The notes beneath the pieces were generated by a model. It was given only the letters and a program-made list of their open reading frames with translations, was not told where the DNA came from and made no database searches. 64,000 nt of DNA, from assembly GCA_001784285.1 (NCBI GenBank), contig MFQC01000011.1:3640-67639 (forward strand), given 5' to 3'. The number at the start of each line of letters is the position of its first letter. Within the stretch, counting starts at the first letter, position 1. Both the position numbers and the translations under genes were made by a program. Below are positions 1-14,665 of the stretch, one piece after another. Origin of the DNA: Candidatus Magasanikbacteria bacterium RIFCSPHIGHO2_02_FULL_48_18. Its GTDB lineage: Bacteria; Patescibacteriota; Patescibacteriia; Magasanikbacterales; UBA922.

Positions 1-352
1 GGCGTGTGGGCGGCGACGCCGGTCGCCGCGTTGCACGAGTCGACCGTGCACAGGTTGCCGTCGTCGATGACGCCGCAATCCTTCTCCTCGACGACGCACT
101 GGCCGACGACGTTGCACGTCATCCCAGACGAACACACGATGTCCGTGTGGATGCAGTCGCCGTCCACGCACACGTCCGTCGTGCACGCGTCGTTGTCGTT
201 GCAGTCCTTGCCGTTGTTGCACTCGGCGGCCGGGGCGGTCGGCCCCGCGTCCGCCTGGGGGGTCGGGGGCACGACGTACGTCGGCCCAGCGTCGTTGGTG
301 TCCCACGTGATGTCTCCCCCCAGACACCCTGAAACGGAAAAGGAGGCGAAGA
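1..352 (-). CDS. Lipoprotein with Cys-rich repeats; N-terminus present (ATG at 352), C-terminus runs off the window start
   Basis: Minus-strand translation MKSNLMIVAAIFASFSVSGC (signal peptide + lipobox) followed by repeated C-x-D-x-N-x-C-T-x-D-x-C...G-C units resembling Myxococcus-type disulfide repeats. AAGGAGAA SD 6 nt upstream. High GC. Not in ORF track because no in-window stop. Confidence 0.55.
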
Positions 353-854
353 TGGCGGCGACGATCATCAGATTGCTCTTCATCGGAATTCTCCTTGGCC
401 CATCGTGGGCCGCGCTAGTGCGGCCCGTTCCCGGGCGCTGTTTGAATCAGTGACAGCGCCGCAGTGGCGCCAGGCTTGAGAATGAGAAAACGAACACTAC
501 GTATCCAGGAGGAAAATGGAATCGTTGTCATGCTGACAAAACGGTATGACAACTATTTTATCCTCTTCTTGGATACGTAGTCTTTCGATAAAGACGTTCA
601 TCCAATTTGTAAAGAGCACGGCAACAATAACAAATATTATTGCCAGACAATGAAACCCTGTCCAGGGTTAGAAATCCGGTTAGGGTGCCATTGTCTTCTT
701 CGAAAGCTATCCACTTGACAAGTGATGACTACCAGGGTACCCTGATATTAGGTGATAATCCTGGTGCACGATTATATCTGCTCCGGATCTTGGAACTCCC
801 TTGGGGAGTTCTTTTGTTTTCCTTCAATTCTTGATATACTATTTTTGGATTGGA

Positions 855-929
855 GGGCGGAGAGCAGGTGGTCCTGCATCTGGGATTATCACCTCAGTTC
901 CAGGGGTTCGAATCCCCCTCCGTCCACCA
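855..929 (+). ncRNA. tRNA-like element (acceptor GGGCGGA/TCCGTCC, T-arm with GGTTCGAATCC, discriminator A, encoded CCA); anticodon arm non-canonical, so a tRNA pseudogene, att remnant or tmRNA-like 3' domain
   Basis: Hand-folded: 7-bp acceptor with one GU, D-arm GCAG/CTGC, T-loop TTCGAAT, terminal CCA at 927-929. Anticodon stem only pairs with an 8-nt loop. Confidence 0.3.
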
Positions 930-931
930 AA

Positions 932-960
932 AGTCCTGAATTTTCAGGACTTTTGTTTTT
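932..960 (+). terminator. Rho-independent terminator
   Basis: AGTCCTGA-ATTT-TCAGGACT hairpin followed by TTTTGTTTTT, directly after the tRNA-like CCA. Confidence 0.6.
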
Positions 961-1183
961 GTAAAGAACAGTTTCCCAAACAATAACTCACAGTATCTCC
1001 CTTCGAAAAAATATTTTTCAAAGAGACAATGCTGTCCCCTTGTCTCAATTCTTTCGAATGAAACAAGGGGGAGCCTCCTTTCCCGCGATCCGGTGGATAC
1101 CGGCGCAGGATCGTGACTTCCCCGACTGGGTCGGGGAACGCAGCGCGTGTCACAGTGCGGATGCGCTGCTTGGAAGGTACGAA

Positions 1184-2214
1184 CTACCACATGGGCAAGT
1201 TGGCCGCCCGCCACATGGCGGGCGGGATGTAGGTGTTGGCTGCCGCTGCTGCCGCAGCTTCAGCCGCCACCTTGGCCTTCTCCCACTGGTTCCTCTCCCC
1301 GTTTCGCACACCTTGTGCGATACCGCAGGAGATCGCCCCGATGCCAGCGCCGGTCAACGCACCAATCCACGCCCCCTCGTCGGCGTGGCCATCCGTGTGC
1401 TTGCCGGGCTCGTCGGCCTGTGGTTGCTCGAAGTGCCCGATGAGGGCCCCTGCGCCGGCACCTCCGGCAGTCGCGGCACCCATCCCGATGAACCACATGG
1501 CCCAATCGGGAAGGTCGTACTGCGGAGGCGGGGGGACGTTGCTCGCCAGGCTGTAGAGGTAGGGGTTGAGCTGGTGTTTGTCAATCTTCACTCGCTCACC
1601 CAACCCGTCCCGGAAGCGGCAGTCGGCGCCGGGCGTCTTGAGGCACATTGCGAGTGCATAATTCGGGTCCAGAACGGCCCGATTCATGCAGTCCTCACAA
1701 GCCTCGACCATGTTTTTGACCGCCTCGGAGTCGACCGTCGTCCCATCCAACGACCGGAGGGTGCCGATGACGGCCGTGCACTGGGCCGCGCAGCCCTGCC
1801 CTGCCGGCGTCGCGAGCCGCTTTTCGATCCTGGCCAGAGTGGCCTGGATCTCGTCGAGCTTCTGGTGCACCGGCCCCAGTTTGACGTCGAGCACGGGGCC
1901 GATCGCCCCGATGACGCCGTCGATGATCCTCTGGATCGACTCGTCGTTGATCCCGACCTCTTTGCAGGCGTTATATACGCGGACCTTCCGCTTCCGGCAG
2001 GCCGCGCTGTCATCGCAGCACTCCTCGCGAAGCTTCTTCAGATCCGCCTCGAGGGCCGCAGTCTGAGCCGCCGACGCGTTCGTCTTCGCCACCATCGCCC
2101 TGATGGTGGCATCCTGGTTCGCCACGGTCGCTTTGACGTTCTGCCCGAACGCCAGGGTGCCGCTGATTGTGAGGGCCAGCAGCACAAGCCCCATGATCGT
2201 CTGGCGAATCATTG
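1184..2214 (-). CDS. Secreted protein with signal peptide, coiled-coil/Cys-rich middle and C-terminal glycine-zipper region
   Basis: GAGGAGAAACGCA-ATG start at 2214. N-terminus MIRQTIMGLVLLALTISGTLAFG. C-terminus GMGAATAGGAGAGALIG / GALTGAGIGAIS motifs. GC-rich codon usage. Confidence 0.55.
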
Positions 2215-2274
2215 CGTTTCTCCTCGACCCTACCCGGGTCACGCGTTGTGAGCCCGGGCAGGGCTCATGGGTTG

Positions 2275-3783
2275 CTACTGGCAGTTGACGCCCGGCATGG
2301 CCGCCGGCTGGCTCGGGTCGATCGAGTGCAGGTTGTCCTGCGACGCGCACGTCGCCAGTTCCACGACGGGGGGCGGTGGGGGTGGGGGTTCCGGGTCACG
2401 CAGAATCAACCACGTAACAAAGACCCCCAACAACGTGCAGAACAGCAGGAACCCGATGGCCGTCGTCCACTGGAAGACCGTGGTCTCCCGCGTGACCGCC
2501 TTCACCCCGTTGAGTGGTGCGTTCACTGTGTTGTTGGCAACCAGCGGCACGCCGCCGGCGCCGACCGCACCCGCACCCCCCGGCAGGGCATTGGCGAAGT
2601 TCGCCAACGCCTGCATGTCGGCCAGTCGCTGGGCCATCGTCGGCTCTGGCGGAGCCACCGGGACGAGACCCTGCAGTTGCTGTACCAGGTCGACCGCGTC
2701 TCCAGCGGTGGGAGCGGCCGGGACCAGACCGTGCAGGGTTGTCACGATCTTTGCCGCCTCGTCGGGGTCTGCCGCCTTGGCCTGCGGCAGGGACTTGAGG
2801 AGCGCGTCGACGAGCGTCGCCGCGCCGTCTCGCTGGTCCTTCGCCATATCCTTTGCGAGCTGCCCCGGGTCCGTGACCTTCGGCAGTACGCCGAGGACGG
2901 CCGTGAGCCGGTCGGCAGCGGCCTTGTCTGCCGCGGCGCCGAGCGTCACGGCGACGCCACCGGTCTCCCGGATCTGCGCCGACGGCGCCTCGGCCTTCGG
3001 AAGCGCCGCAAGGACGGCGTCCAGGCGAGCCTGGGCCGCCTTGTCCGCAGCTCCCCCGAGCTTCGTCGTCATGTCGCCCATCGCGTTGAGCTGGTCCATC
3101 GGGTCGACAGCTTTCGCCATCATCCCCTTGAACATGTCTGCCGCTTCCTTGTAGACCTTTGCCAGGTCGGATTGCGGATTTGCCGCCGCGATCGCCGCGG
3201 GGAGCCCGTTCAGCCTGTCGCCGATCGTTGTCAGCGCTGTGAGGATCTGCGTCGCGGGCACCCCGGCGGTGACGGCGCTCTTCAGCGCCTCCGGGAGTGC
3301 CGTGATCGCCGCCTGGAGGGCGGCGAAGTTTTCTCTTGTCGCCGTTCCCGCCGTGATCAGCGGGAGGAGGACCTTGACAAGGTCCACGATGTCTCGCAGG
3401 TTCATGGTGTCTCCTCCGCCGTCGGGCGGTCTTGTTGTGTCAGTTCTCGTTCTTGTCCGCGGATCGGCCGGCGGCTGGTCAGGGTCCCCGCGCACGAGTT
3501 CAATCGTGCCGGAGGTCGCCTCCCCGGCCGCATCCGTGATCCGGACGCGGACAGGGTTGCGGTGGTCATTCTGGAGGTTCCCCTTGGGAACCACGATGTC
3601 CACCCTTTCGGGCGGACCCGCACTCCAGAACCAACCTTCCCTGCCCAAGGCCGCGGCCTTGGGCACGTCCTTGACCTCACCCCTAATTTCAATTCTCACT
3701 CTCGTCGGCTCTGCCGCGCCGAAGTCACCCTCGACGCGAACCGCCCGATCTCCGATCTTCGTAATGGTTGTGATGGTAGCCAT
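2275..3783 (-). CDS. Repeat-containing protein with beta-rich N-terminal domain, L-x-x-LP-x-A type repeats, C-terminal TM helix and poly-Pro tail
   Basis: Strong GAGGAGG SD 6 nt before ATG at 3783 (MATITTITK...). A second GGAGGAG-ATG occurs in frame at about 3420. Single hydrophobic helix TTAIGFLLFCTLLGVFVTWLIL near the C-terminus. Confidence 0.55.
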   Translation of the reverse strand: MATITTITKIGDRAVRVEGDFGAAEPTRVRIEIRGEVKDVPKAAALGREGWFWSAGPPERVDIVVPKGNLQNDHRNPVRVRITDAAGEATSGTIELVRGDPDQPPADPRTRTRTDTTRPPDGGGDTMNLRDIVDLVKVLLPLITAGTATRENFAALQAAITALPEALKSAVTAGVPATQILTALTTIGDRLNGLPAAIAAANPQSDLAKVYKEAADMFKGMMAKAVDPMDQLNAMGDMTTKLGGAADKAAQARLDAVLAALPKAEAPSAQIRETGGVAVTLGAAADKAAADRLTAVLGVLPKVTDPGQLAKDMAKDQRDGAATLVDALLKSLPQAKAADPDEAAKIVTTLHGLVPAAPTAGDAVDLVQQLQGLVPVAPPEPTMAQRLADMQALANFANALPGGAGAVGAGGVPLVANNTVNAPLNGVKAVTRETTVFQWTTAIGFLLFCTLLGVFVTWLILRDPEPPPPPPPVVELATCASQDNLHSIDPSQPAAMPGVNCQ

Positions 3784-3905
3784 GTGTAGCCTCCTCATTG
3801 CGAAGTCGGTGCGGGTATGCGCCGACGAAAGTGTTGGACCGTACAGGATCCGACCACCACCTCGACCATCGAGGTGAGGTAGTGAGGACCCGGACGGGCC
3901 GTTGT

Positions 3906-3975
3906 ATCTCCCGTTCCCCCTCCTCACCTCCCCCTTTGGGGGAGGGGAAGGGAGGGGGAACGGGAGATCTTTTTC
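3906..3975 (+). repeat. 63-nt GC-rich imperfect palindrome plus T-run (terminator-like) at the GC-content boundary
   Basis: atctcccgttccccctcctcacctccccc / gggggaggggaagggagggggaacgggagat arms around tttggg, then CTTTTT. GC composition switches immediately downstream. Confidence 0.5.
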
Positions 3976-4177
3976 TCTTGTTTTGGCCTTTATTTGTAAT
4001 GAACGGCTGAAAACACCAAAATTAGGCATGTTCAGCACAGAAAAAATCCTGGGAATCCCGGACCTTTTCTTTTCTGAACAGTGCAATAATACTTTAAATA
4101 ATCGCTCTATACAGCCAAATTTTTCTGCTTTTCTCCTTTTTTAGGAGAACTAACTATCATAGCACATTTTGGAGAAC

Positions 4178-4206
4178 TTGTCAAGACACCCCACCCATGA
4201 TATTCT
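4178..4206 (+). promoter_or_regulatory. Sigma70-like promoter TTGTCA-17-TATTCT for the toxin-antitoxin array
   Basis: Hexamers with 17-nt spacer, about 20 nt upstream of HEPN start 4226. Confidence 0.4.
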
Positions 4207-4225
4207 ACCCATATTCTACAATCGT

Positions 4226-4675
4226 ATGACTGATAAAGAAAAAATGAAATATGTCTTCTACTGGTTTGAAGAAGCCAAAATTTCTTTGGATGTCGCAAAA
4301 TCACTGTATAAAAGCAAAAAATACGCAGAAACACTCTTTTTTGGCCATTTAACCTTGGAAAAAATACTCAAAAGTATTGTCGTATTTCAAACAAATAAAC
4401 ACGCACCGTTTACCCACGACTTGGTATCTCTTGCAGAAAAAGGAAGAATGCCTCTTTTAACCGATGCAATTGAAACGTTACAAAAAGTAAATGGCTTTTA
4501 TCTTTCCGGCAGATATGATCAACACAAAATGGATTTTCGGAAAAAATGCACTCCCGAATTTACCAAAAAATACTTTGATGAAATAAAAAATACCTACATA
4601 TGGCTCGAAAAAGAAGCACAAACGCTCTTCCGGTCTTTGTCACCGCAAAAGCCCATGGATACATCCAAACACTAA
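4226..4675 (+). CDS. HEPN domain protein (toxin-like partner of MNT)
   Basis: MTDKEKMKYVFYWFEEAKISLDVAKSL...GRYDQHK motif. Classic HEPN N-terminus. Paired with downstream MNT. Confidence 0.7.
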   Translation: MTDKEKMKYVFYWFEEAKISLDVAKSLYKSKKYAETLFFGHLTLEKILKSIVVFQTNKHAPFTHDLVSLAEKGRMPLLTDAIETLQKVNGFYLSGRYDQHKMDFRKKCTPEFTKKYFDEIKNTYIWLEKEAQTLFRSLSPQKPMDTSKH

Positions 4676-4935
4676 AATCCTCTCGGATACCGATCAATCG
4701 CGCATACATATTCGGTTCGTGGGCAAAACAGAAGGCAGATGATGACAGTGACATTGATCTTGCTATTTTGTCGTCTTCTTTTTCGGATTGGGAAAAACAA
4801 AATAACGCGTTGGCAAAAGCCATGCGCATGGATTTTGCCGGCATTGAACCGCACGGATTTCACCCAAAGGATTTCACACCCGGTGAAAATCTGTTAGTGG
4901 ATGAAATTCTCAAATATGGAATACGGATTGTGTGA
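4600..4935 (+). CDS. Minimal nucleotidyltransferase (MNT, antitoxin-like); start uncertain, 76-nt overlap with HEPN if ATG at 4600
   Basis: IFGSWAKQKADDDSDIDLAIL = GS...DxD nucleotidyltransferase signature. Ends GIRIV*. Confidence 0.7.
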   Translation: MARKRSTNALPVFVTAKAHGYIQTLKSSRIPINRAYIFGSWAKQKADDDSDIDLAILSSSFSDWEKQNNALAKAMRMDFAGIEPHGFHPKDFTPGENLLVDEILKYGIRIV

Positions 4936-4938
4936 TAT

Positions 4939-5220
4939 ATGAAAAAAGAAAACATTATCAAACTTATTGCCCCCATTCTCACGCGCCATCATGTGACGAA
5001 TGCCGCGTTGTTTGGTTCGTTCGCGCGAGGAGAAGAAACGGAAACCAGCGATGTGGATATTCTTATTGACCCACCGCCACACATGTCACTTCTTGATATG
5101 GCACGTCTCAAACATGAACTTGAAGACACCCTTCACAAAAAAGTGGATCTTGTCCCGGAGAGATCACTCTACCCAGATCTCAAACCATACATTGAAAAAG
5201 ATAAACGTCCAATTTTTTAG
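4939..5220 (+). CDS. Minimal nucleotidyltransferase (MntA-like antitoxin)
   Basis: LFGSFARGEETETSDVDILID motif. Confidence 0.8.
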   Translation: MKKENIIKLIAPILTRHHVTNAALFGSFARGEETETSDVDILIDPPPHMSLLDMARLKHELEDTLHKKVDLVPERSLYPDLKPYIEKDKRPIF

Positions 5221-5223
5221 TCT

Positions 5224-5604
5224 ATGGCAACAGATGAACAGCGAGAACCATTGGCATATTTACATGACATACAGGAAAGTATTGAACACATAGAGGCATA
5301 CACACAACCACACACCTTTGAATCGTTTGTAAGAGACCAACAAATACAAGACGCTGTGGTTCGACGAATAGAAATAATCGGCGAGGCAGTAAAACAATTA
5401 CCGCTTGCCATCCGGCATACCTACCCCGAAATCCCATGGCGGGATGTGGCAGGTATGCGTGATATTTTAATTCACGAATATTATCGCGTTGATTTACCGA
5501 CTGCGTGGGAAGTGGCCATTCGTGATTTGCCAAAATTGAAACGGCAAATACAAAACCTCATTAGGCATATTACAATGAATGATAATAAAAATTCTAAGAA
5601 GTAG
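5224..5604 (+). CDS. HepT/DUF86-type HEPN toxin
   Basis: R-DILIHEY (Rx4HxY HEPN motif). 4-nt gap after the MNT gene. Confidence 0.8.
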   Translation: MATDEQREPLAYLHDIQESIEHIEAYTQPHTFESFVRDQQIQDAVVRRIEIIGEAVKQLPLAIRHTYPEIPWRDVAGMRDILIHEYYRVDLPTAWEVAIRDLPKLKRQIQNLIRHITMNDNKNSKK

Positions 5605-5606
5605 GT

Positions 5607-5639
5607 AAAATTCTCAAATACGAAATACGGATTGTGTAA
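5607..5639 (+). pseudogene. 33-nt remnant of an MNT gene 3' end (..KILKYEIRIV*) directly after the hepT stop
   Basis: Near-identical to 4900-4935 (3' end of MNT at 4600-4935). Confidence 0.5.
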
Positions 5640-5657
5640 CTCATTACCATAAAATAA

Positions 5658-6065
5658 ATGGCTAACGAACATATTATCCAATTTTGGAAAAAATCCGCGG
5701 ACAAAAATCACGCGGCCGCCAAGTCATTATTTCGCCTCGGGCATTATGATATGTGCCTCTTCTGTTGCCATCTTGCGATTGAAAAATATCTGAAGGCATA
5801 TTACATAGCACAAACTGGCAAGCTTCCCCCGTACATCCACGATCTCAACCGAATCGCCGAATCACTAAGTCTGCCGCTCACAGATGAACACATAACAGAC
5901 CTCGACACAATGACAAAATTTAACGTCCAAGGGAGATACGACGACGTAAAATTGCGCTTCTACAAAACCGCGACAAAACCATACACCAAACACTATCTTG
6001 AAAAAACCAACCAATTCATTCTATGGCTAAAAAAAGAATCTCAAAAAAAACAGAAAAAAAAATAG
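5658..6065 (+). CDS. HEPN domain protein
   Basis: HAAAKSLFRLGHYDMCLFCCHLAIEKYLKAY...QGRYDD, HEPN-like. Upstream of MNT. Confidence 0.7.
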   Translation: MANEHIIQFWKKSADKNHAAAKSLFRLGHYDMCLFCCHLAIEKYLKAYYIAQTGKLPPYIHDLNRIAESLSLPLTDEHITDLDTMTKFNVQGRYDDVKLRFYKTATKPYTKHYLEKTNQFILWLKKESQKKQKKK

Positions 6066-6349
6066 ATGGTTTTATATCCTCATTAAAAAAAGATGGGACG
6101 CCGATTACGAGTCTCTATCTTTTTGGCTCCCATGCCAAAGGAACCGCGCATGAATGGAGCGACATTGATTTGGCTGTTATTTCTCCGGCATTTGAAACAC
6201 GTATCAAAGATCCGCTGAATTATTTATGGGGGAAAAGGATGGAACTCAAAGAATTTGCCATCGAACCTGTTGGCTTTTCTCCAAAAGATTTTAAAGAAGG
6301 CGGCATGCTGATAAACGAAATTAAGCGGCATGGAATACGGATACTGTAA
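6023..6349 (+). CDS. Minimal nucleotidyltransferase
   Basis: LYLFGSHAKGTAHEWSDIDLAV motif. Ends GIRIL*. Confidence 0.8.
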   Translation: MAKKRISKKTEKKIDGFISSLKKDGTPITSLYLFGSHAKGTAHEWSDIDLAVISPAFETRIKDPLNYLWGKRMELKEFAIEPVGFSPKDFKEGGMLINEIKRHGIRIL

Positions 6350-6414
6350 AACCAAAGAGAAAATAAAAACAAACGCTTCATACATACCATTTTCTCACCC
6401 TAATATATACCTCT

Positions 6415-6636
6415 ATGAGCAACACTACCCCTACCAAACAAAAAAATCCTGACCTAACCAGAGAAATTCAGCTTATGAAAAGCCTGCTCATCAGTCTTGT
6501 CGGTCGAGACAACGAGGGAAACTACCAGCCTGAATTTGCCAAAAAAATACTTCTTGCTTCGGAAGAAAAGCCGACCAAAACATTTAAAGATCCCGCTTCA
6601 TTTTTGCGCGAACTTAAAAATGTTTCAATTTATTGA
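6415..6636 (+). CDS. Hypothetical small protein (73 aa) in cassette-like position
   Basis: ORF only. No SD. Followed by another MNT 3' remnant. Confidence 0.3.
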   Translation: MSNTTPTKQKNPDLTREIQLMKSLLISLVGRDNEGNYQPEFAKKILLASEEKPTKTFKDPASFLRELKNVSIY

Positions 6637-6703
6637 CAGCGAAATAATTCAGCTTCTTCGAGTCGCGCACAGAAAAGACATCTACCTATAATAGTCCCTT
6701 GCT

Positions 6704-6765
6704 TCTTTAAAGAAAACGGAGTACTGATCAATGAAACCAAGCGGCATGGAATACGGATACGGTAA
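6704..6765 (+). pseudogene. Truncated duplicate of an MNT gene 3' end (FKENGVLINETKRHGIRIR*)
   Basis: About 60 nt highly similar to 6290-6349 (3' end of MNT at 6023-6349). No upstream coding continuity. Confidence 0.55.
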
Positions 6766-6831
6766 ATTTGGTGAAAGATGCTGAAACAAGTTCAGCATGA
6801 CAACAAACGAGACTTGAGAGACTTCCAAAGG

Positions 6832-6868: not shown

Positions 6869-9800
6869 TTACTCTCCAATCTTTGCCGCATCTCCTGCGG
6901 TTGCAGCACTCCCACTCGTCTCCTCCACTTTTACCCCATTTTTAAATTCAACCGGATTATTGGGATCGTCCAAATAGTACCGATTGATGGTATCCCCATC
7001 AACATCGTCTATTGCCGGCCGCAATTTGCCGCCTTCTTCAATAAGCTGAACTTTGCCTTCAATGGTTGCATTTCCTCCGGCAATATCAATTTTTAAATTT
7101 CCTCCCGCAATGTTTGGATTAAAATCCACTGGCATCACCACTTCGAATGGATCTTTCCCTTCCCCTCGAAAGAGAGAAAATCGTTTGATACCAGACACTC
7201 TTGTGGGAAGTTCGACTAACGGTTTGTCCGGTGTCGGTGCCCCTTCGGTTCCGGCAGCTGCTTCTGCCGCAGGAGATGGAATAGGTCCGCCGGATTCGCC
7301 CGCCGGTTCAACTCGAGGCTCTGCTGTTTCCTGGGGTCCAGCCGCAACTTTTGGTTTGGACAAATCCAATCCCGATCGATCTACTCCGGCGGCGCGAGTT
7401 TGGATATCCTCCCCACCTGATTGTGCGGCAGACCCCACGGCGCGTCCAATTGCGTCTCCACGGAACGAAGAAGCATCTGGTCTTGCGCCACTTGTTCGAG
7501 CGGCATCTTCTATCCGTTCCACTTCTGTTTTGACCGCATCAAAGTATGAACCCAGCACATCACGACGAAAGGTTCCCGCTATTTCATTATAACCGGAAAG
7601 ACGTGTCTTCAAAAACTGTTCTGTATATTGTTGCAAGGTTTGTCGTTGCGCCGGAGAAAACTCAAGTATATCTTCCAAATCAATATCGCCTCGAGCGGCC
7701 GCGTCAAGCGATGTCATAAGCAAGCTCACGCCTTTTTGCAATTTTTTGATTTCTGTAACTTCGGCTGCGGACGGCATTTCACTATAATCTCTTCCAATAC
7801 CGCCTTGATAGTCTCCGACACTTCCGCCGATACCTGCTGAACCATACGCTCGCGATTCAGCCGCAGAACCCACACCTCGAGCCACAGCAGAAGACGCTCC
7901 TCCAGTGATCGATTGAAATGGATTCTCGGCATAATGTGTTACCTGCCCGGCGGCATCGGTTACATTGAGCGTGCCATCTCGAAGTAATTCTACTACGCTG
8001 ACATTATTGCCAATTTCATACGTTATACCGTCGAGCGAAATCACTTTGACATTTTTGCCAAGGCCATCCGACGTTTCAATAATGCGTATTTTCCCCGGGC
8101 CGGAAAGCCCTGCTTTGGCTGCGTCCATTGACTGTGATACGTCGGGTCGTCCATGAAGTTCGGCCTTTGTCATAGGTCGTCCATAGCGTACTTCCAAATT
8201 TCTGTCTCCGCCAACTTGGTTGTGATGGAATGTGAGTCTACCTTTTTCATCAAGAGCCGGAAGATAGTGCTGATCGACACCATCTTTCCAATAAACGCCC
8301 TTTAAATAGCGTCCGTCCCGAGTCATAAATCCGGTACGCAATGAAACGCGGTGGGCTTCTCTGCCAATGTGCGTATCCAAATCCACTTTTGCAACATTGG
8401 GATCATACCCAATCATGCTATAAAATTTGGCCTTTTCTTCTCCGGTTAAGGTATCGTCCAAATATCGCATAATTGCAATATACCGGCCTTCCGGGCCGCC
8501 ACCTTTTGGCAACTGCCCATGGTCAAACATTTCTTGCAGAACCTCCGGCTTTTGCAAACTCGGCAATTCATGAGAAATACCTTGCAGGTCTTCTTTTACG
8601 CCACTTTCCAAATTCATGGCATCCCAATCGACCTCAGGCGCTTCCGGAGGAATATCCGCAAAATCTGCCGGCTGTATGTCGGCGGCCTGTTGCCAGCCGG
8701 CAAGACGCGCCAACTCTTGTCTGGTGATGTTAATTTCTTCTTGCAAACCCCCCACAGTCTGTTCGGCTTGAAGACTTTTTCCCATGAGCTCAGCGTGTGC
8801 CGGACTATCCGGAGACACTGCCGCCATTTGATTTTCAATTTCCACATGATGCACATGCGCGTCTGCCAATTGTTGTTCCAATGCCTCCACTTTTGTGGTG
8901 CCATCCATAATCTTTTGGATGTCTTCTGATTTTTTTGCCAAATCACTGGTTGATAATTGAAAGGCTTCGGTTGGGCGACCTTGCATCATGCTTTGCGCGT
9001 ATGCTTTTGCTTCCAAAAATTTTTGGACGTAGCTACCAACCGCAATACCGGCAACGACAGACCCCAGACGTTTTGCCCAACGAAATCCTTTTTCTTTACC
9101 AATTTTTCTTAACGAAATATCAAGAGAGGCATTTTCTTGTTCTATATAGGCCGAGGTATATTTGGCGACATCTAAAGCTGTCGCATCTGGTGATCCTCCC
9201 GCGGCCTCCGGGGTGCCGGACGTGCCGCCTGCCATGTTTTGTACTAAAACCTCCTGAAGAAGGACGTCCCGTTTTTCGTACAAATCCTGATAGACCTCGT
9301 CTTTATTTGGATCTTTATGATCCACCTGCAATTTTGCACGGCGGACACTTAATAAATCGTTCAATGTTTCAAGCCGCGTTGCGGGTGTGTCCCCAAGCTC
9401 ATCAATCATGATATCTTTCCCAGCAAAACCACGACGCAGTATTCCTCGAATTCCGCCTTTCTTTTCTAATTTCGCACACTTTTTCTGGTATTTCTTCGTC
9501 ATGTCGGCTTTTTCTTTACCATATTGAGCCGGTTCCCATTCTTGCGCGGTAGCGCGTGCATGAAGAACTGCCATATCCTGATTGAATTTTGCGTTCAACG
9601 CCGTGGCTCGATATTCTACGATGTCCTTTTCGTCGGTAAACACTCTCCCTTGTTTTCCAAAACGACGCTGGGAATACTCTTGTACTCCGTCCAAAAGACC
9701 TCGCGAACCAAAACCACCTCCAAGCCCGGCCATTGCTGTCCGGGTTGCAATAAATCCACCTGCCTGAAGAACCGATTCAAACCATAAAGGAGCTCCCACC

Positions 9801-12800
9801 AGAGCAGTAGATAATACGGTTCGGACACTGACAACTTTCCCGGCGCCTTTCATAAATCGGCTGGTTTGTTGCCACTGCTTATCCCAAAAGCCGCCCTTAT
9901 TTTTTTCGGTATAGGACTCAAAAAAATTGGACAAATTCATATCACCCAGTTTTCTCCAAGCTGATTGAACTTTGGCAAATGCTTTATTTTCCAATCGTTC
10001 CGAAATGGCCGTATCGAGCTGCCGTGATTCTTCTTTCATCCACGCTTGAATTTCTTGCACCTCAAACTCGGCTTTTTCAAGATAGGCTTTTCTGGCCGCG
10101 TCATAATCAACTTTTGCCTGCTCAAACGCAGGTTCCGCTTTCTTCCCACCAATGAGGCCACGACGTTTTTTGTATAAAAGTGCTAATGTTGCACGTGCGT
10201 CTTCCACATCTAATTCCAAACCGACAAGTTCTTTCTTCTCGTCGGACACTTCCCCCGCCTCCACCTCTCCGCTTGGCGGTTCCCTCTCGTCTTTCGCTGC
10301 CGGCGCGTATGCCTCGGCCGCGGCTTTTTGAAACGCATCGTTCACTTTTCTCTCTAGCTCAGAATCGTCCCACAGCTTTTGCGCCGCGACTGCCGGATCC
10401 GGATTTTGCTTCAATTCTACCGTAAGCCATTTGGGATTATCTTTCAACCAATCACCAATTTCTTTATAGAGTACATCCATGGCTATTGAACTTTTTAAAA
10501 TATTGGAAGCATAGCCCTCCCTGCCAACAAGGGAAGGAAACCCGTCTTGAACACGTTTCCGAAATTCATCAATAACCTGTTCCCAATACTCACGTACTTT
10601 TTCTCTGGATGCGGGGCGAAAACCCATTTTTTTGGATTGTCCAATGGCGGCCAACAACTCAACCTCTATTTCCCCGCCGGTATTAACCATACCATGGGCT
10701 ATGTCAATCATTTTTTTTCTCCCCGCCATTTCTTGCGTTGGCAAATGTGTACCAGATCTATCGGCGCGTGGAATACCTGCTGTTGCAACAGTTCGCTTAA
10801 ACAGAATATCTTCATAATAAGCAACGTCCCCTCGGGGAAACATGGCGCTTGGCCCTCCGGAAAACGAACGTTCTATAACGCCCCCCAAGGCTCCATGCAA
10901 TAAATCATCCACTTGTGTCCTTGCTTCGCGTTCAGAATAGCCAAGCGCAAGAAAATTGGCATACAACCGTTCTTTTGTCGCCTCCACTATTCTCTCTTTC
11001 CACTCGTCAAATGTTCGAACGTGCTCTTCATATGCTTGTATAGAGCCATCAATTTTTGCGGAAAGATCATCCGGAATAATTTTATCCTTATGAAGTTCGA
11101 CCATCACAAGTTTCGCGACCTCCTCGGCTGGCGTGTCAAGTTTACATCTGCCACCGTCTATTAATTTTTTGATTATGTTGTCAGTATTGTATGGATCAAC
11201 CTGTCTTACAACAGCTGTATGTAACTCATCTGAGATTGGCTCCGGTTCTATTGCTTTCCTTATTAAAAATAAAACCACATCTCTTGTTCCATAAATCAAA
11301 TCGGCAAGATCATATTGCTCTTTTATTTTTTTTACCCCCTCTTTGGCACGAGCTTCCGGTTTCATTTTTTTCAGCTCTTTTTCCTCCATCTTTGGATTCA
11401 CGGAATAAAAAATTAACTCAAGGGCGTGTAGGCGGCGATCATTGTTATCTATTTGGCCCACAGCTTCTTTTTCCACTGCTTCTTTAAACGCTGTCCAGTA
11501 TGCTTGCAATTCTGCATTATCAACATCAACGTCTTTCATTTTCTTCTGCCACGCATCTTCCGCGTCTCTCGCCGGATCACGCTCACCAATTTCTTGTGCA
11601 AAACCAAGATCACGCATAATGCCTTTTGCGGCTTCTTTGGGATTATTTCTTACGTCTTCATGAAGAAATCCCAGGTTCTCTGATAAATTTTCAAGCGCAG
11701 GCTGGACACGGTCTTGGACAAATTGGTCAATGTCATCTTCCTTTACATGCCCGCCATCTTTGAGAAGCTGATGTATATGGTCGCGGACATCCTCTTGCAC
11801 CAACTGATCCCACACATGCCTTGAAAACTTCCCAAATTCTTCATCCTCTTTTTCCATTGTCTTTATGGTCTCATAAAAATCAAAATTTTTTGGATCTATT
11901 TTTCTATCAGTCCACAGCCGATCAAACGCCGCATCAAATGCGCCGCCATCGTCAAAACGGGAATCTATACCATGAATTTCCGGATATGTTTCTTCAAGAA
12001 AAGCCCGAAAACGTTGTTTATATTCTTTCTTATACGCTTCGGGGTCTTTTTTCTCTTCCACAATCACCGGCTCGGAATTTTCATCTGCGCGCGCCAACAA
12101 CAATTCCGCCAGCTGTTCCGGAGTGGCTTTTTTGGGGGCATGACGCAAGACATCTTCCACATCTAAATAATGAAAGATGCGATAAAAAAGTTTTTCCCGT
12201 TTCAGAGGGTCGCTCTCCAATCTTGATATCACCCCCAGTGCGGCATGCCAACCCATCTGTGCGGCATGGCGTAATACCGCGAGATCACGTTTTCCTTTAT
12301 TAAAAATCCCAGATAGTTTACTGACCTCCACTGCTCCTATCTTGTCTATACGATCTAAAAATTTAGCTGTTGCTTCACGATTTGCGTCATGCAACGCGCC
12401 ATACGTCATCGATCCGGCTTCCGCGGCAACCGGAGTTGGCTCAACATCAACTGGCCGTTTATCAAGACCTCCGCCTCTTGTTGCACTAAGGGCATCTGAA
12501 ACTTCCAACAAATCTGGTTCGGATTCGACAGGTCGTGCTGGTGGTTGGTCTGGTTCAACGGCAGCCGGAGCCGATTCTGTGCCGCCAGGAACTTCATCAT
12601 CAGCTACTTCTGCTTCCGGTGGTTCATCGTCAGCAAACTCCGCCGTCACCGGTTCTTCGTCATCTACCAACTCGGATTCTGCAATTGGTCCTGTATCGAA
12701 ATATCGCCCAGCTTTTTTATGAGCACCCAAAAATTGTGCCACTCGTTTTGTGGCTTCCAATTCTGGATTCCCTAAAACCAATTCCTCTCCACGTTGATCT

Positions 12801-14665
12801 GATTCCAACTGAGCCCTCAACGCCCTCAAAATATCCAAGGCCTCGGACGAAAGTGGAATAGATTTATCGTCAGGAGTAAGTATTTTAACTGCCGCTTCAA
12901 CTACTTGATCAACGTATTCCTGTGTTTTTTGTTCTTGCCATTTTTCTGTTTCTGTTCTTTCTGTAGGGACAACAGCCGGTACTGCCGACGGTGCTCCTTT
13001 CTCTGTATCTTTAATGTCAGGTATAAGTAGTGGTCCAGATGGTTCATCGTCCAATGAAGAAAGCGTAGGCCCAGGTTCGAAAGGAACTCGTGGTTCTGGT
13101 CCTGATGCCGGCGCCTCCCCCGGTTCATCCTTATGCACTTTTTTCCGAGAAATACCTTTCCCTAACGAACCACCCAATGTTGTTTCTCCCAAAATACCAA
13201 GCCCGCGCGGTCTTTCTGGTAAAGATTCAGCGGCCGGCGTTTCTACGGGTGGTACAGAAGTTTCTTTTTTTACATCGTCTGTGGCAAGAACAGCGCCAGA
13301 CTGTTCACTTTCTCCTGGCACCGACGGCGGCGTGAGCTGTTCCAACCCTTCAACATGATCAGCCGATCCATCGTCTTCTACAATCGTCGCTTCTGCAATC
13401 TTTTCTTCTGCTTCTTCCGGCTGCAATGCAGTGGCTCTCTTTTCTTCCTCCGCCGCAAGCTCACTAAGAAAATCGGGTTTATTTTCTTCATCCGCACCAA
13501 AAGGCAAAGGATGAGTTTCCGGCGCAACGCTTCGCTTGGTCACTTTGGACCATGAAGGAGAGTCGGCTCTTGCGATATGAATTTCCTGCGGATAGGTTGT
13601 CCCATCTTTTCGTGGCAAGTGAACCCGAAATGTTATCGCTCCATCCGCGCGTTTTCCCACAACTTCGCCGGGAACGAGTTTTTTTGGATACTGATATTGA
13701 ATTTGTTCGCCCACCGTAAAGGTGTGCGTACCGAGGGAAACCGTTTCCCCCTCTTTGGCAGTCGCGATTACTCCTGTTTCCGGAGAAGTCGCCGCTTTCT
13801 CTTTTCCTGTTTCACCACGAAATAATGTTCTTCTTAATTGTTCTCTTTTTGGCACTGCCCAATCCGGCATATGCGCCATTGCTTGAACTCCGGGCGGCCC
13901 AAGACGTTTCCCTTCTGAAATAATTCTTCCCCTTTCGTCATCCGTAAGGTCGGCCTCGTCTTTCGCAAGAAGATCGGCAATGGAGGATTCTGGTGACACG
14001 GGAGCTTCTTCTGCTAAAGGAACAACGGACTGAGAAATTGTGCCTTCTTCAGGCACAACCGTATCTTCATGCGTAATGCCTAATTCGTCCTGAACGACGT
14101 CAAGAATATTATTCACGGTGTCAGAAACGTCCCCTGTTTGGAGAAGAACTTCCTCATCTAAGACGCGCATACGAGAAACAAATGCCCTTTGTATGCTCGA
14201 ACGTTGCGCGGCAGGGTAACCATTGAGACAATCGTCCAATCCCCCTAATACGTCTACCCAAAAATCTGCCACTCTCCCACGGACATCACGGTCGGTGACA
14301 CCATTTTTATCAAAAACGGTTTCCAAAAACTGCAAAAATTCCATGGTGTTGTTTCGGCGCAATTCGTGTTCTAGTCTGGCGCGGAACTCTTCATAATCAG
14401 TCTCAAGCGACTCCAATTCTATTGCAATCTGCTCTGCTTCTCCGTCTTTCAATTTTGTTCCGGCATTATCCAAAAAAGACCGAAGCCTCTTATCGAGCCC
14501 CGCCAATTCATTTCCAAAATCCTCACTTCCCTCTTCCAATGTCTTGAGGTGGTCAAATAACGTTGCCATTTCAGCCCGCATGCGATCGGCTCTTTTCACG
14601 ATATTTTCGGCTTCGGGCGTTTGCGATCCTTCTTTTTTTGGTTTTGTTTTGTCTTCTTCAGCCAT
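6869..14665 (-). CDS. Giant protein (2598 aa), function unknown. Acidic coiled-coil N-terminal half, two internal hydrophobic segments, Gly-rich C-terminal region. Weak YD-repeat-like motifs (TRDGRYL, DEKGRLTF)
   Basis: Single uninterrupted ORF. ATG at 14665 is 3 nt after the upstream ORF stop (coupled). Opposite strand carries only short ORFs. Confidence 0.85.
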   Translation of the reverse strand: MAEEDKTKPKKEGSQTPEAENIVKRADRMRAEMATLFDHLKTLEEGSEDFGNELAGLDKRLRSFLDNAGTKLKDGEAEQIAIELESLETDYEEFRARLEHELRRNNTMEFLQFLETVFDKNGVTDRDVRGRVADFWVDVLGGLDDCLNGYPAAQRSSIQRAFVSRMRVLDEEVLLQTGDVSDTVNNILDVVQDELGITHEDTVVPEEGTISQSVVPLAEEAPVSPESSIADLLAKDEADLTDDERGRIISEGKRLGPPGVQAMAHMPDWAVPKREQLRRTLFRGETGKEKAATSPETGVIATAKEGETVSLGTHTFTVGEQIQYQYPKKLVPGEVVGKRADGAITFRVHLPRKDGTTYPQEIHIARADSPSWSKVTKRSVAPETHPLPFGADEENKPDFLSELAAEEEKRATALQPEEAEEKIAEATIVEDDGSADHVEGLEQLTPPSVPGESEQSGAVLATDDVKKETSVPPVETPAAESLPERPRGLGILGETTLGGSLGKGISRKKVHKDEPGEAPASGPEPRVPFEPGPTLSSLDDEPSGPLLIPDIKDTEKGAPSAVPAVVPTERTETEKWQEQKTQEYVDQVVEAAVKILTPDDKSIPLSSEALDILRALRAQLESDQRGEELVLGNPELEATKRVAQFLGAHKKAGRYFDTGPIAESELVDDEEPVTAEFADDEPPEAEVADDEVPGGTESAPAAVEPDQPPARPVESEPDLLEVSDALSATRGGGLDKRPVDVEPTPVAAEAGSMTYGALHDANREATAKFLDRIDKIGAVEVSKLSGIFNKGKRDLAVLRHAAQMGWHAALGVISRLESDPLKREKLFYRIFHYLDVEDVLRHAPKKATPEQLAELLLARADENSEPVIVEEKKDPEAYKKEYKQRFRAFLEETYPEIHGIDSRFDDGGAFDAAFDRLWTDRKIDPKNFDFYETIKTMEKEDEEFGKFSRHVWDQLVQEDVRDHIHQLLKDGGHVKEDDIDQFVQDRVQPALENLSENLGFLHEDVRNNPKEAAKGIMRDLGFAQEIGERDPARDAEDAWQKKMKDVDVDNAELQAYWTAFKEAVEKEAVGQIDNNDRRLHALELIFYSVNPKMEEKELKKMKPEARAKEGVKKIKEQYDLADLIYGTRDVVLFLIRKAIEPEPISDELHTAVVRQVDPYNTDNIIKKLIDGGRCKLDTPAEEVAKLVMVELHKDKIIPDDLSAKIDGSIQAYEEHVRTFDEWKERIVEATKERLYANFLALGYSEREARTQVDDLLHGALGGVIERSFSGGPSAMFPRGDVAYYEDILFKRTVATAGIPRADRSGTHLPTQEMAGRKKMIDIAHGMVNTGGEIEVELLAAIGQSKKMGFRPASREKVREYWEQVIDEFRKRVQDGFPSLVGREGYASNILKSSIAMDVLYKEIGDWLKDNPKWLTVELKQNPDPAVAAQKLWDDSELERKVNDAFQKAAAEAYAPAAKDEREPPSGEVEAGEVSDEKKELVGLELDVEDARATLALLYKKRRGLIGGKKAEPAFEQAKVDYDAARKAYLEKAEFEVQEIQAWMKEESRQLDTAISERLENKAFAKVQSAWRKLGDMNLSNFFESYTEKNKGGFWDKQWQQTSRFMKGAGKVVSVRTVLSTALVGAPLWFESVLQAGGFIATRTAMAGLGGGFGSRGLLDGVQEYSQRRFGKQGRVFTDEKDIVEYRATALNAKFNQDMAVLHARATAQEWEPAQYGKEKADMTKKYQKKCAKLEKKGGIRGILRRGFAGKDIMIDELGDTPATRLETLNDLLSVRRAKLQVDHKDPNKDEVYQDLYEKRDVLLQEVLVQNMAGGTSGTPEAAGGSPDATALDVAKYTSAYIEQENASLDISLRKIGKEKGFRWAKRLGSVVAGIAVGSYVQKFLEAKAYAQSMMQGRPTEAFQLSTSDLAKKSEDIQKIMDGTTKVEALEQQLADAHVHHVEIENQMAAVSPDSPAHAELMGKSLQAEQTVGGLQEEINITRQELARLAGWQQAADIQPADFADIPPEAPEVDWDAMNLESGVKEDLQGISHELPSLQKPEVLQEMFDHGQLPKGGGPEGRYIAIMRYLDDTLTGEEKAKFYSMIGYDPNVAKVDLDTHIGREAHRVSLRTGFMTRDGRYLKGVYWKDGVDQHYLPALDEKGRLTFHHNQVGGDRNLEVRYGRPMTKAELHGRPDVSQSMDAAKAGLSGPGKIRIIETSDGLGKNVKVISLDGITYEIGNNVSVVELLRDGTLNVTDAAGQVTHYAENPFQSITGGASSAVARGVGSAAESRAYGSAGIGGSVGDYQGGIGRDYSEMPSAAEVTEIKKLQKGVSLLMTSLDAAARGDIDLEDILEFSPAQRQTLQQYTEQFLKTRLSGYNEIAGTFRRDVLGSYFDAVKTEVERIEDAARTSGARPDASSFRGDAIGRAVGSAAQSGGEDIQTRAAGVDRSGLDLSKPKVAAGPQETAEPRVEPAGESGGPIPSPAAEAAAGTEGAPTPDKPLVELPTRVSGIKRFSLFRGEGKDPFEVVMPVDFNPNIAGGNLKIDIAGGNATIEGKVQLIEEGGKLRPAIDDVDGDTINRYYLDDPNNPVEFKNGVKVEETSGSAATAGDAAKIGE

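Follow-up and report, generated by a model that had tools for sequence, protein, structure and literature searches.

The toxin-antitoxin (TA) island described here occupies positions 4,178 to 6,765 of a 64,000-nucleotide stretch (hereafter the window) of contig MFQC01000011.1 from Candidatus Magasanikbacteria bacterium RIFCSPHIGHO2_02_FULL_48_18. It consists of two composite blocks, each made of a HEPN-MNT module (a HEPN-domain protein and a minimal nucleotidyltransferase, MNT) followed by a second TA module. In both blocks, a direct duplication of host sequence, running across the MNT stop codon, brackets the second module; we interpret this arrangement, with moderate confidence, as the footprint of insertion with long target duplication. 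In block A, an MntA-like/HepT module comes after HEPN_A-MNT_A, and a relic (relic A', 38 nt) of an MNT_A-type 3' end closes the block. In block B, HEPN_B-MNT_B is followed by a DUF2683-like antitoxin and a 5'-deleted RelE/ParE toxin, and then by a 61-nt relic of an MNT_B-type 3' end (relic B').

The duplicated sequences are present as four copies:

4896-4935, + strand: copy 1, the coding end of MNT_A with its stop; it serves as the reference of repeat family D1 and encodes VDEILKYGIRIV and a stop.
5600-5639, + strand: copy 2, relic of an MNT_A-type 3' end, non-coding, 87% identical over 38 nt.
6290-6350, + strand: copy 3, the coding end of MNT_B with its stop; it serves as the reference of repeat family D2.
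6706-6768, + strand: copy 4, relic of an MNT_B-type 3' end, non-coding but in frame, 84% identical over 61 nt.

These positions are close to those reported in an earlier interpretation made from the letters alone (the sequence-only reading), which saw in them one conserved motif used four times, at the ends of four equivalent units. The copies fall instead into two target-derived pairs. Copies 1 and 2 are identical at 33/38 positions and copies 3 and 4 at 51/61, with ungapped scores of 25.5 and 36, respectively, as compared to a maximum of 12.8 ± 1.2 in 100 simulated sequences. Between the pairs, copy 1 reaches a score of 13 with copy 3 or 4, which is chance level. MNT_A and MNT_B are paralogues with 42% identity, and the codons that they share in the tail (5/6) are not above the gene-wide value (24/45). 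The C-terminal L-I-x-E-I-K-x-x-G-I-x-I is a protein motif conserved across 38 members of the MNT family. The cross-pair similarity is explained by coding constraint of the paralogues only. With pairs far above chance and cross-pairs at chance apart from paralogue codons, the presumed motif corresponds to two intact gene ends, each with a relic of itself nearby. A better reading of the four units is that of two HEPN-MNT modules, after each of which come a second TA module and a stranded MNT tail.

A search with the 13-mer ATGGAATACGGAT, allowing up to two mismatches, returned seven sites in the window, where 1.9 are expected by chance: four are the copies and three are two-mismatch sites, so that the MNT-tail motif is not present in the remainder of the window. 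Only two dispersed direct-repeat pairs were detected in the window (E<1e-3, 150-6000 nt apart), both inside the 2.6-kb island. Tail and relic cease to resemble each other on the right within 1-2 nt of the stop codon; on the left, their similarity begins 12-13 and 19-20 codons ahead of it. The MntA-like/HepT module lies in the 664 nt between the MNT_A tail and relic A', and the antitoxin and toxin remnant lie in the 355 nt between the MNT_B tail and relic B'. The inserts thus measure ~0.66 kb (a complete MntA-like/HepT) and ~0.36 kb and contain no further open reading frame (ORF) family. As evidence that would speak against it, the sequence-only reading had named a motif absent elsewhere and a similarity of coding origin confined to the true MNT genes. 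The motif is indeed absent from the rest of the window and the cross-pair likeness is at coding level, but the orphan copies are significantly similar to the neighbouring MNT tails.

The same locus was found in 19 independently assembled contigs (various samples and assemblers), 18 of them at 100% identity and one at 99.7% over the stretch covered; 12 of the 19 span the whole 2.9-kb region at 100%. The window also matches contig MFQL01000005.1 of GCA_001783045.1, a Candidatus Magasanikbacteria genome of groundwater origin. An assembly artefact is ruled out by these matching contigs. Neither population variation nor an empty site was seen among contigs carrying the same proteins.

Both orphan copies keep the MNT reading frame and its stop codon (VGKILKYEIRIV in copy 2 and FKENGVLINETKRHGIRIR in copy 4, each followed by the stop) as well as the AATACGGAT core. 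Neither has a start codon, and in copy 2 a family-invariant glycine is changed to glutamate. Their divergence from the intact tails amounts to 13-16%. A frame kept up to the stop, the missing start and the lost glycine together show that the orphans are decaying, non-coding relics of MNT 3' ends. The hepT stop codon (TAG, 5602-5604) falls inside copy 2, 3-5 nt into relic A'; it is owed to a G-to-A difference with respect to copy 1, and this HepT is ~5-14 residues longer at its C-terminus than most homologues. Copy 2 may extend upstream into the hepT tail, with 14/22 matches past an 8-nt gap, but HepT C-termini vary in length.

The retention of the core and stop codon in both orphans, and the supply of the hepT stop codon by copy 2, could also mean that the orphans are functional at present and kept by selection, for instance as terminators, as regulatory RNA elements or as decoys that bind MNT or HEPN. 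This is very improbable in our view. Single-strand DNA folding of the four copies on both strands gave z values of -0.8 to +1.5, with 42-194 of 200 shuffles folding equally well or better, so that no stable fold is seen, and no terminator-like site coincides with either orphan. In addition, the divergence of the orphans includes the loss of the invariant glycine codon, and equivalent relics in other genomes are unrelated in sequence.

The folding results also bear on the proposal of the sequence-only reading that cassettes are shuffled here in an integron-like manner, the ~35-nt motif acting as a recombination or cassette boundary. In such a system, the motif, with its core GGAATACGGAT, would be an att/attC-type site for a recombinase that shuffles TA cassettes. 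An attC site is defined by imperfect inverted repeats through which the single strand folds into a hairpin, and TA cassettes are common in chromosomal integrons (PMC8876359). The island resembles such arrays in that its units are tandem, on the same strand, small, mostly promoterless and each followed by a repeat; the four copies stand one at the end of each small unit, and the unit sizes of 416 and 704 nt are cassette-like. However, the repeats have no significant single-strand hairpin on either strand. A Pfam scan of 20 window ORFs, including both neighbours of the island, revealed no recombinase or integrase domain, intI tyrosine recombinases included, and neither attI nor Pc was found beside the array; genes of the surroundings include the chromosomal housekeeping genes for SecY, EF-Tu and SmpB. 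Moreover, the repeats do not constitute a site family but copy the end of the neighbouring gene: they form two pairs with only coding-level similarity between them, they are missing from the remaining window, and the TA-flanking repeats of other genomes share no sequence. Tail-only relics number 3 among 86 full-length homologues (80 loci plus the window stretch), and 2 of these 3 are in the window. Without hairpin, recombinase among the scanned ORFs or common sequence, a shared site-specific system is excluded within the reach of these analyses, and we give it next to no credence. What stands of the earlier proposal is that the repeats bound two small TA units, whose cassette-like nature is partly supported; the analogy with integron cassettes is not supported, nor is a shared recombination site at the boundary. 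By eye, the motif does not display the 11-6-11 partial palindrome of a XerC/D dif-like site, as found in pdif modules.

The genes of the island were assigned as follows:

4226-4675, + strand: HEPN_A, HEPN-domain protein, presumed toxin of module A (Pfam PF05168, E 1e-11).
4600-4935, + strand: MNT_A, minimal nucleotidyltransferase, presumed antitoxin, intact (Pfam Polbeta/NTP_transf_2).
4939-5220, + strand: MntA-like nucleotidyltransferase, 93 aa, partner of HepT (Pfam NTP_transf_2, PF01909, E 4e-14).
5224-5604, + strand: HepT-like (DUF86) toxin, predicted RNase (Pfam PF01934, E 1e-28).
5658-6065, + strand: HEPN_B, HEPN-domain protein of module B (Pfam PF05168, E 3e-20).
6023-6349, + strand: MNT_B, minimal nucleotidyltransferase, intact (Pfam NTP_transf_2, E 3e-14).
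6415-6636, + strand: orf73, DUF2683-like candidate antitoxin of a RelE/ParE-type module (146 cluster representatives, E<=1e-3).
6621-6691, + strand: RelE/ParE-family toxin remnant, a start codon fused in frame to the last 22 codons (MFQFIDSEIIQLLRVAHRKDIYL, then a stop).

Pfam agrees with the three pairs (HEPN-MNT, MNT-HepT, HEPN-MNT) that had been proposed on one strand. In both HEPN-MNT modules, the two domains are present and the HEPN gene overlaps the downstream MNT gene. MNT_A keeps every family-invariant residue, and MNT_B has 129 homologues, for the most part in Patescibacteria. The MntA-like and HepT genes are 3 nt apart and show the adjacency of DUF86 and minimal nucleotidyltransferase of type VII systems. 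Domain content and gene order match known systems for all three module types of the island, namely type VII HepT-MntA, HEPN-MNT and type II RelE/ParE. In contrast to type VII reference members, MntA and HepT score 46 and 40 bits, both under the 60-bit NCBIfam equivalog cut-off. As observed by eye, HEPN_B has GRYDDVKLRF, without the histidine of the Rx4-6H motif expected in HEPN RNases, and HEPN_A has GRYDQHK, with an unusual x3 spacing (RYDQH); the histidine is also missing in several homologues (L020 and L048, see below). Judged by these motifs, HEPN_A and HEPN_B may not be canonical RNases.

The 73-aa ORF had been put forward as a cassette-borne and possibly novel toxin or antitoxin. A word-index search gave no match besides itself, but an exhaustive phmmer search identified a family of 146 cluster representatives at E<=1e-3, with the core L-R-S-x-x-I-S...D-x-E-G-x-Y-R-P-E-F-V, and 26/50 family members reach Pfam DUF2683. 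Homologues were located at 41 metagenome loci; of the 30 loci listed, ~25 have an 87-89-aa ORF directly downstream (gap -20 to +12 nt). These partners end with ...RVIFQF-x5-I-x-L-I-x-V-x-HRKDIYR and match the Pfam HigB-like and ParE families above cut-off. Family and partner genes thus make orf73 a module-borne gene, the antitoxin of a RelE/ParE-type module, and not a novel one; its role as an antitoxin is assigned by association with the toxin gene only. It differs from type II reference antitoxins in its DUF2683-like, predicted three-helix structure (pLDDT 76), for which no fold match was obtained in the PDB, a profile search against the PDB giving just CopG at E 0.7. Neither an NCBIfam match nor homologues in viral contigs were found.

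No intact toxin of ~85-95 aa follows orf73. A hidden Markov model built from 20 partner toxins matched the six-frame window solely at 6620-6685, with profile positions 65-86 of 87 (E 1.5e-6); the 23-aa remnant is too short to match Pfam. The last five codons of orf73 (NVSIY) are read-through beyond the usual end of the family, across the deletion junction. These alignments show that ~64 toxin codons were lost by an in-frame deletion, which left the antitoxin orphaned.

Repeats that bracket TA modules are also found in other genomes. We surveyed 104 non-redundant loci (L020-L140) for two-copy direct pairs of 30-150 nt with at least 80% identity, 250-3000 nt apart, copy number being counted within the fetched stretches. 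Of 47 such pairs, 17 tightly bracket a TA module, as compared to 2.7 ± 1.5 for random placement (maximum 8 in 1000 trials). Among units of 400-1500 nt, 11/68 TA units are bracketed versus 4/246 non-TA units (odds ratio 11.7, p 1.6e-5), in loci chosen for carrying TA genes and with crude ORF units. HEPN-MNT pairs are especially concerned. The bracketing repeats measure 30-135 nt, and their sequences are unrelated between loci; examples are L025 4519-5377, L043 4451-5523, L055 4529-5406, L064 816-1835, L071 1463-2387 and L118 2894-3485. By eye, a promoter-like stretch is present in the L064 repeat, and a hairpin with a T-run behind it in the L025 repeat. In L118, efp is followed by a DUF2683-like/RelE module and then by a 44-nt copy of its own 3' end, stop codon included, at 91% identity. 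This relic abuts the convergent rplK and has two variants in common with the efp allele of L123. The efp gene encodes an essential translation factor, and a second copy is not expected. What remains as an explanation is a sequence-independent process that would duplicate 30-135 nt of target around a small addictive unit and tend to preserve the flanking gene.

Two further arrangements were noted in the survey. L024 (Komeilibacteria) has a 51-nt palindromic element, TTTCCTTTTCTGAAA...TTTCGGAAAAGG, in two 98%-identical copies (1163-1213 and 2659-2709) around a stretch with a HEPN-MNT module; it looks hairpin-forming, unlike the window repeats. L105 (788-976 and 2497-2605; related loci L104 and L106-L110) has two GrpE C-terminal fragments (109 nt, 84%) that adjoin a DUF2683-like/RelE module and genes which look HicAB-like by eye. 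No complete grpE is visible, and serial insertions may have occurred there at one gene end.

Relatives of the window MNT family were compared at 80 GTDB loci. Tail-only relics are rare among them. In L047 (Doudnabacteria), the last 14 MNT codons, with at least 65 nt of downstream sequence, are found again after 1.9 kb, so that the two copies surround an MNT-HepT and an MNT-HEPN module; in L076, the last 5 MNT codons and 97 nt are duplicated around two decayed TA modules. L020, from another member of the Magasanikbacteria, carries two mosaic HEPN-MNT modules 1.6 kb apart (2932-5333). Their identity is ~100% at the start of HEPN, falls to 55-75% in the central part and returns to 97-100% in the final 87 nt of MNT, ending just past the stop codon. 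These mosaics indicate that recombination at module ends does occur in this lineage. Between the L020 modules lie a tandem repeat of a GATTAA-like hexamer and a 186-aa ORF without Pfam match.

The same data were examined for the alternative that the relics are what is left of two further HEPN-MNT paralogues, A' and B', tandem duplicates nearly wholly deleted, with other TA modules between the duplicates. Decay by deletion is evident in the window itself, where the RelE toxin lacks ~64 codons, and a single deletion between the L020 modules would yield a relic like those of the window. However, duplication and deletion would both be needed, twice, and would have to leave just the last 12-20 codons each time, and no longer MNT fragments were seen in the 80 loci. 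In addition, the duplications of an efp 3' end and of promoter-like and hairpin-containing intergenic sequences around TA modules elsewhere would stay unexplained. We regard such deleted paralogues as unlikely.

At L048 (4630-6053), in a distant Patescibacteria genome, the block A order HEPN-MNT-MNT-HepT is conserved with 49, 51, 57 and 57% amino acid identity, HEPN_A being the gene at 49%, and no relic is found past HepT. Since collinear genes have diverged to 49-57% whereas relic A' is still 87% identical to the neighbouring MNT_A tail, the gene order is much older than the relic. The HEPN-MNT and MNT-HepT modules therefore appear to travel or persist together, and relic A' is more readily taken for the end left behind by a displaced resident allele than for a scar of the very first MntA-like/HepT insertion.

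For insertion with long target duplication, we infer the following direction of events and recombination route. The incoming DNA would come from a relative in which an MNT gene is followed by an extra TA module. On one side, it would recombine homologously within the MNT gene; on the other, an illegitimate joint would form some tens of bases before the resident stop codon. The event as a whole could be a homology-facilitated illegitimate recombination or a break repair templated on the relative's DNA. The duplicated segment would then extend from the illegitimate joint to where the shared homology ends. The outcome would be an intact antitoxin gene, as the cell would need MNT to survive the HEPN protein, and the original MNT 3' end would be stranded downstream and decay neutrally. 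If the antitoxin gene were not rebuilt, the HEPN protein would be set free, which would explain why only rebuilt MNT genes are observed. Later, block B would have decayed through the in-frame deletion of RelE-type toxin codons.

A different route, in which a circle is excised between flanking repeats and re-enters by a single RecA-dependent (Campbell-type) crossover at a homologous gene end, regenerating the repeats, would give the same topology of gene tail, module and gene tail as an insertion-duplication. The variants that the L118 relic shares with the L123 efp allele are compatible with alleles from two lineages, and, with 38-135 nt, the repeats approach or exceed the minimum length that RecA needs for pairing. 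However, the origin of the first repeat-flanked copy would be left unexplained, the present repeats (84-87% over 38-61 nt) are a poor substrate, and the 19 contigs show neither circle junctions nor alternative cargo at the site. We find this route quite unlikely.

Several points weigh against insertion with long target duplication as read here. An empty site is seen in none of the 19 contigs of the locus (18 at 100%), and a scan of GTDB species representatives with the C-terminal 400 aa of the 2598-aa neighbour gave no relative; the insertion itself is thus presumed. One-sided homologous recombination is proposed by analogy with homology-facilitated illegitimate recombination, and no donor was identified. 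The MNT family of the window is next to DUF2683-like/RelE genes at 0/41 loci, so that nothing resembling a donor of block B came to light. In L047, the repeat shows 100% identity and reaches the contig end, which leaves room for an assembly ambiguity, and the choice of the surveyed loci, given above, limits the enrichment. Finally, L124 (1359-1396 and 1987-2024; also L125) presents a mirror image: a 38-nt piece of smpB (codons 23-35, 100%) stands upstream of a DUF2683-like/RelE module and the intact smpB follows the module, which does not fit any of the simple models.

Insertion with long target duplication is known for restriction-modification (R-M) gene complexes (Nobusato et al. 2000, as cited in Furuta, Abe & Kobayashi 2010, PMC2853133). 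The published criteria are repeats of more than 30 bp, of variable length and unique, without mobility gene, and often across the start or stop of a flanking gene; in one example, a 46-bp repeat overlaps 15 bp of a gene 3' end (PMC2853133). Likewise, the window repeats exceed 30 bp (38 nt at 87% and 61 nt at 84%) and are locus-unique within the 64 kb, and the inserts are shorter than 20 kb and devoid of a mobility gene, the block B toxin being truncated. The common features are thus a small addictive unit without mobility gene, locus-specific, target-derived repeats of more than 30 bp and an intact flanking gene. In contrast, the cargo here is TA, with predicted RNase toxins, the hosts are Patescibacteria (candidate phyla radiation, CPR), and the flanking gene is itself the antitoxin gene of another TA module. 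The window repeats (84-87%) are also more diverged than most published ones. Most R-M cases come from naturally competent species, (PMC2853133) and they had empty-site genomes, whereas no such genome was found here. DNA breakage by the inserted genes was proposed as their route. The toxins of the window are predicted to cut RNA, not DNA, and the route would therefore be independent of DNA breakage by the inserted genes, unlike in the R-M proposal. Tentatively, a general host pathway such as DNA uptake followed by one-sided homologous recombination may preferentially fix addictive genes at the ends of indispensable genes. A limited literature search found no paper on insertion with long target duplication for TA modules, and nothing directly relevant on TA modules of Patescibacteria or on repeat-flanked TA modules.

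Two other processes produce related structures. Some integrative elements target tRNA or protein genes at their 3' end, for which they bring a replacement; they encode an integrase and have a fixed att core. As in the window, an intact gene is followed by the insert and then by the displaced original end of that gene, a direct repeat that extends across the gene end, but the inserts are here of 0.36-0.66 kb, without integrase and without a core common to the events. Homology-facilitated illegitimate recombination during natural transformation reportedly leads mostly to insertion with deletion. It shares with our proposal one homologous anchor, one illegitimate joint, the lack of an element-borne enzyme and a site set by the anchor gene; it differs in that a duplication is found here and that the competence of this organism is only presumed.

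Regarding its setting, the island has a GC content of 38-42%, nearly all of the window beyond it being at 41-52%, and it is placed between a segment of 63-68% GC and the 2598-aa gene on the opposite strand. The GC-rich segment (window 1-4000) abuts the island and contains a low-complexity ORF of 584-603 aa on the - strand, without Pfam match. A long imperfect palindrome (CCCGTTCCCCCTCC...GGAGGGGGAACGGG) is located near 3905-3975, with a T-rich run after it. On the other side, the 2598-aa ORF (6869-14665, - strand) converges on the island; no Pfam family is recorded for it.

Overall, the island is built of known module types and carries two probable recombination scars; with these, a footprint familiar from R-M systems would also be seen in TA modules of uncultured candidate-phyla bacteria. 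The movement of chromosomal TA modules that have no mobility gene is a long-standing question. The window offers a concrete footprint, in which the end of the flanking gene is rebuilt and the original end stranded, in two adjacent events of one genome and with similar cases in other candidate-phyla bacteria. It also calls for caution, as short gene-end relics are liable to be taken for conserved motifs. If this reading is true, two classes of addictive genes would be linked by one insertion route, and repeats of more than 30 nt across a stop codon would provide a signature for dating and counting TA acquisitions in uncultured bacteria.

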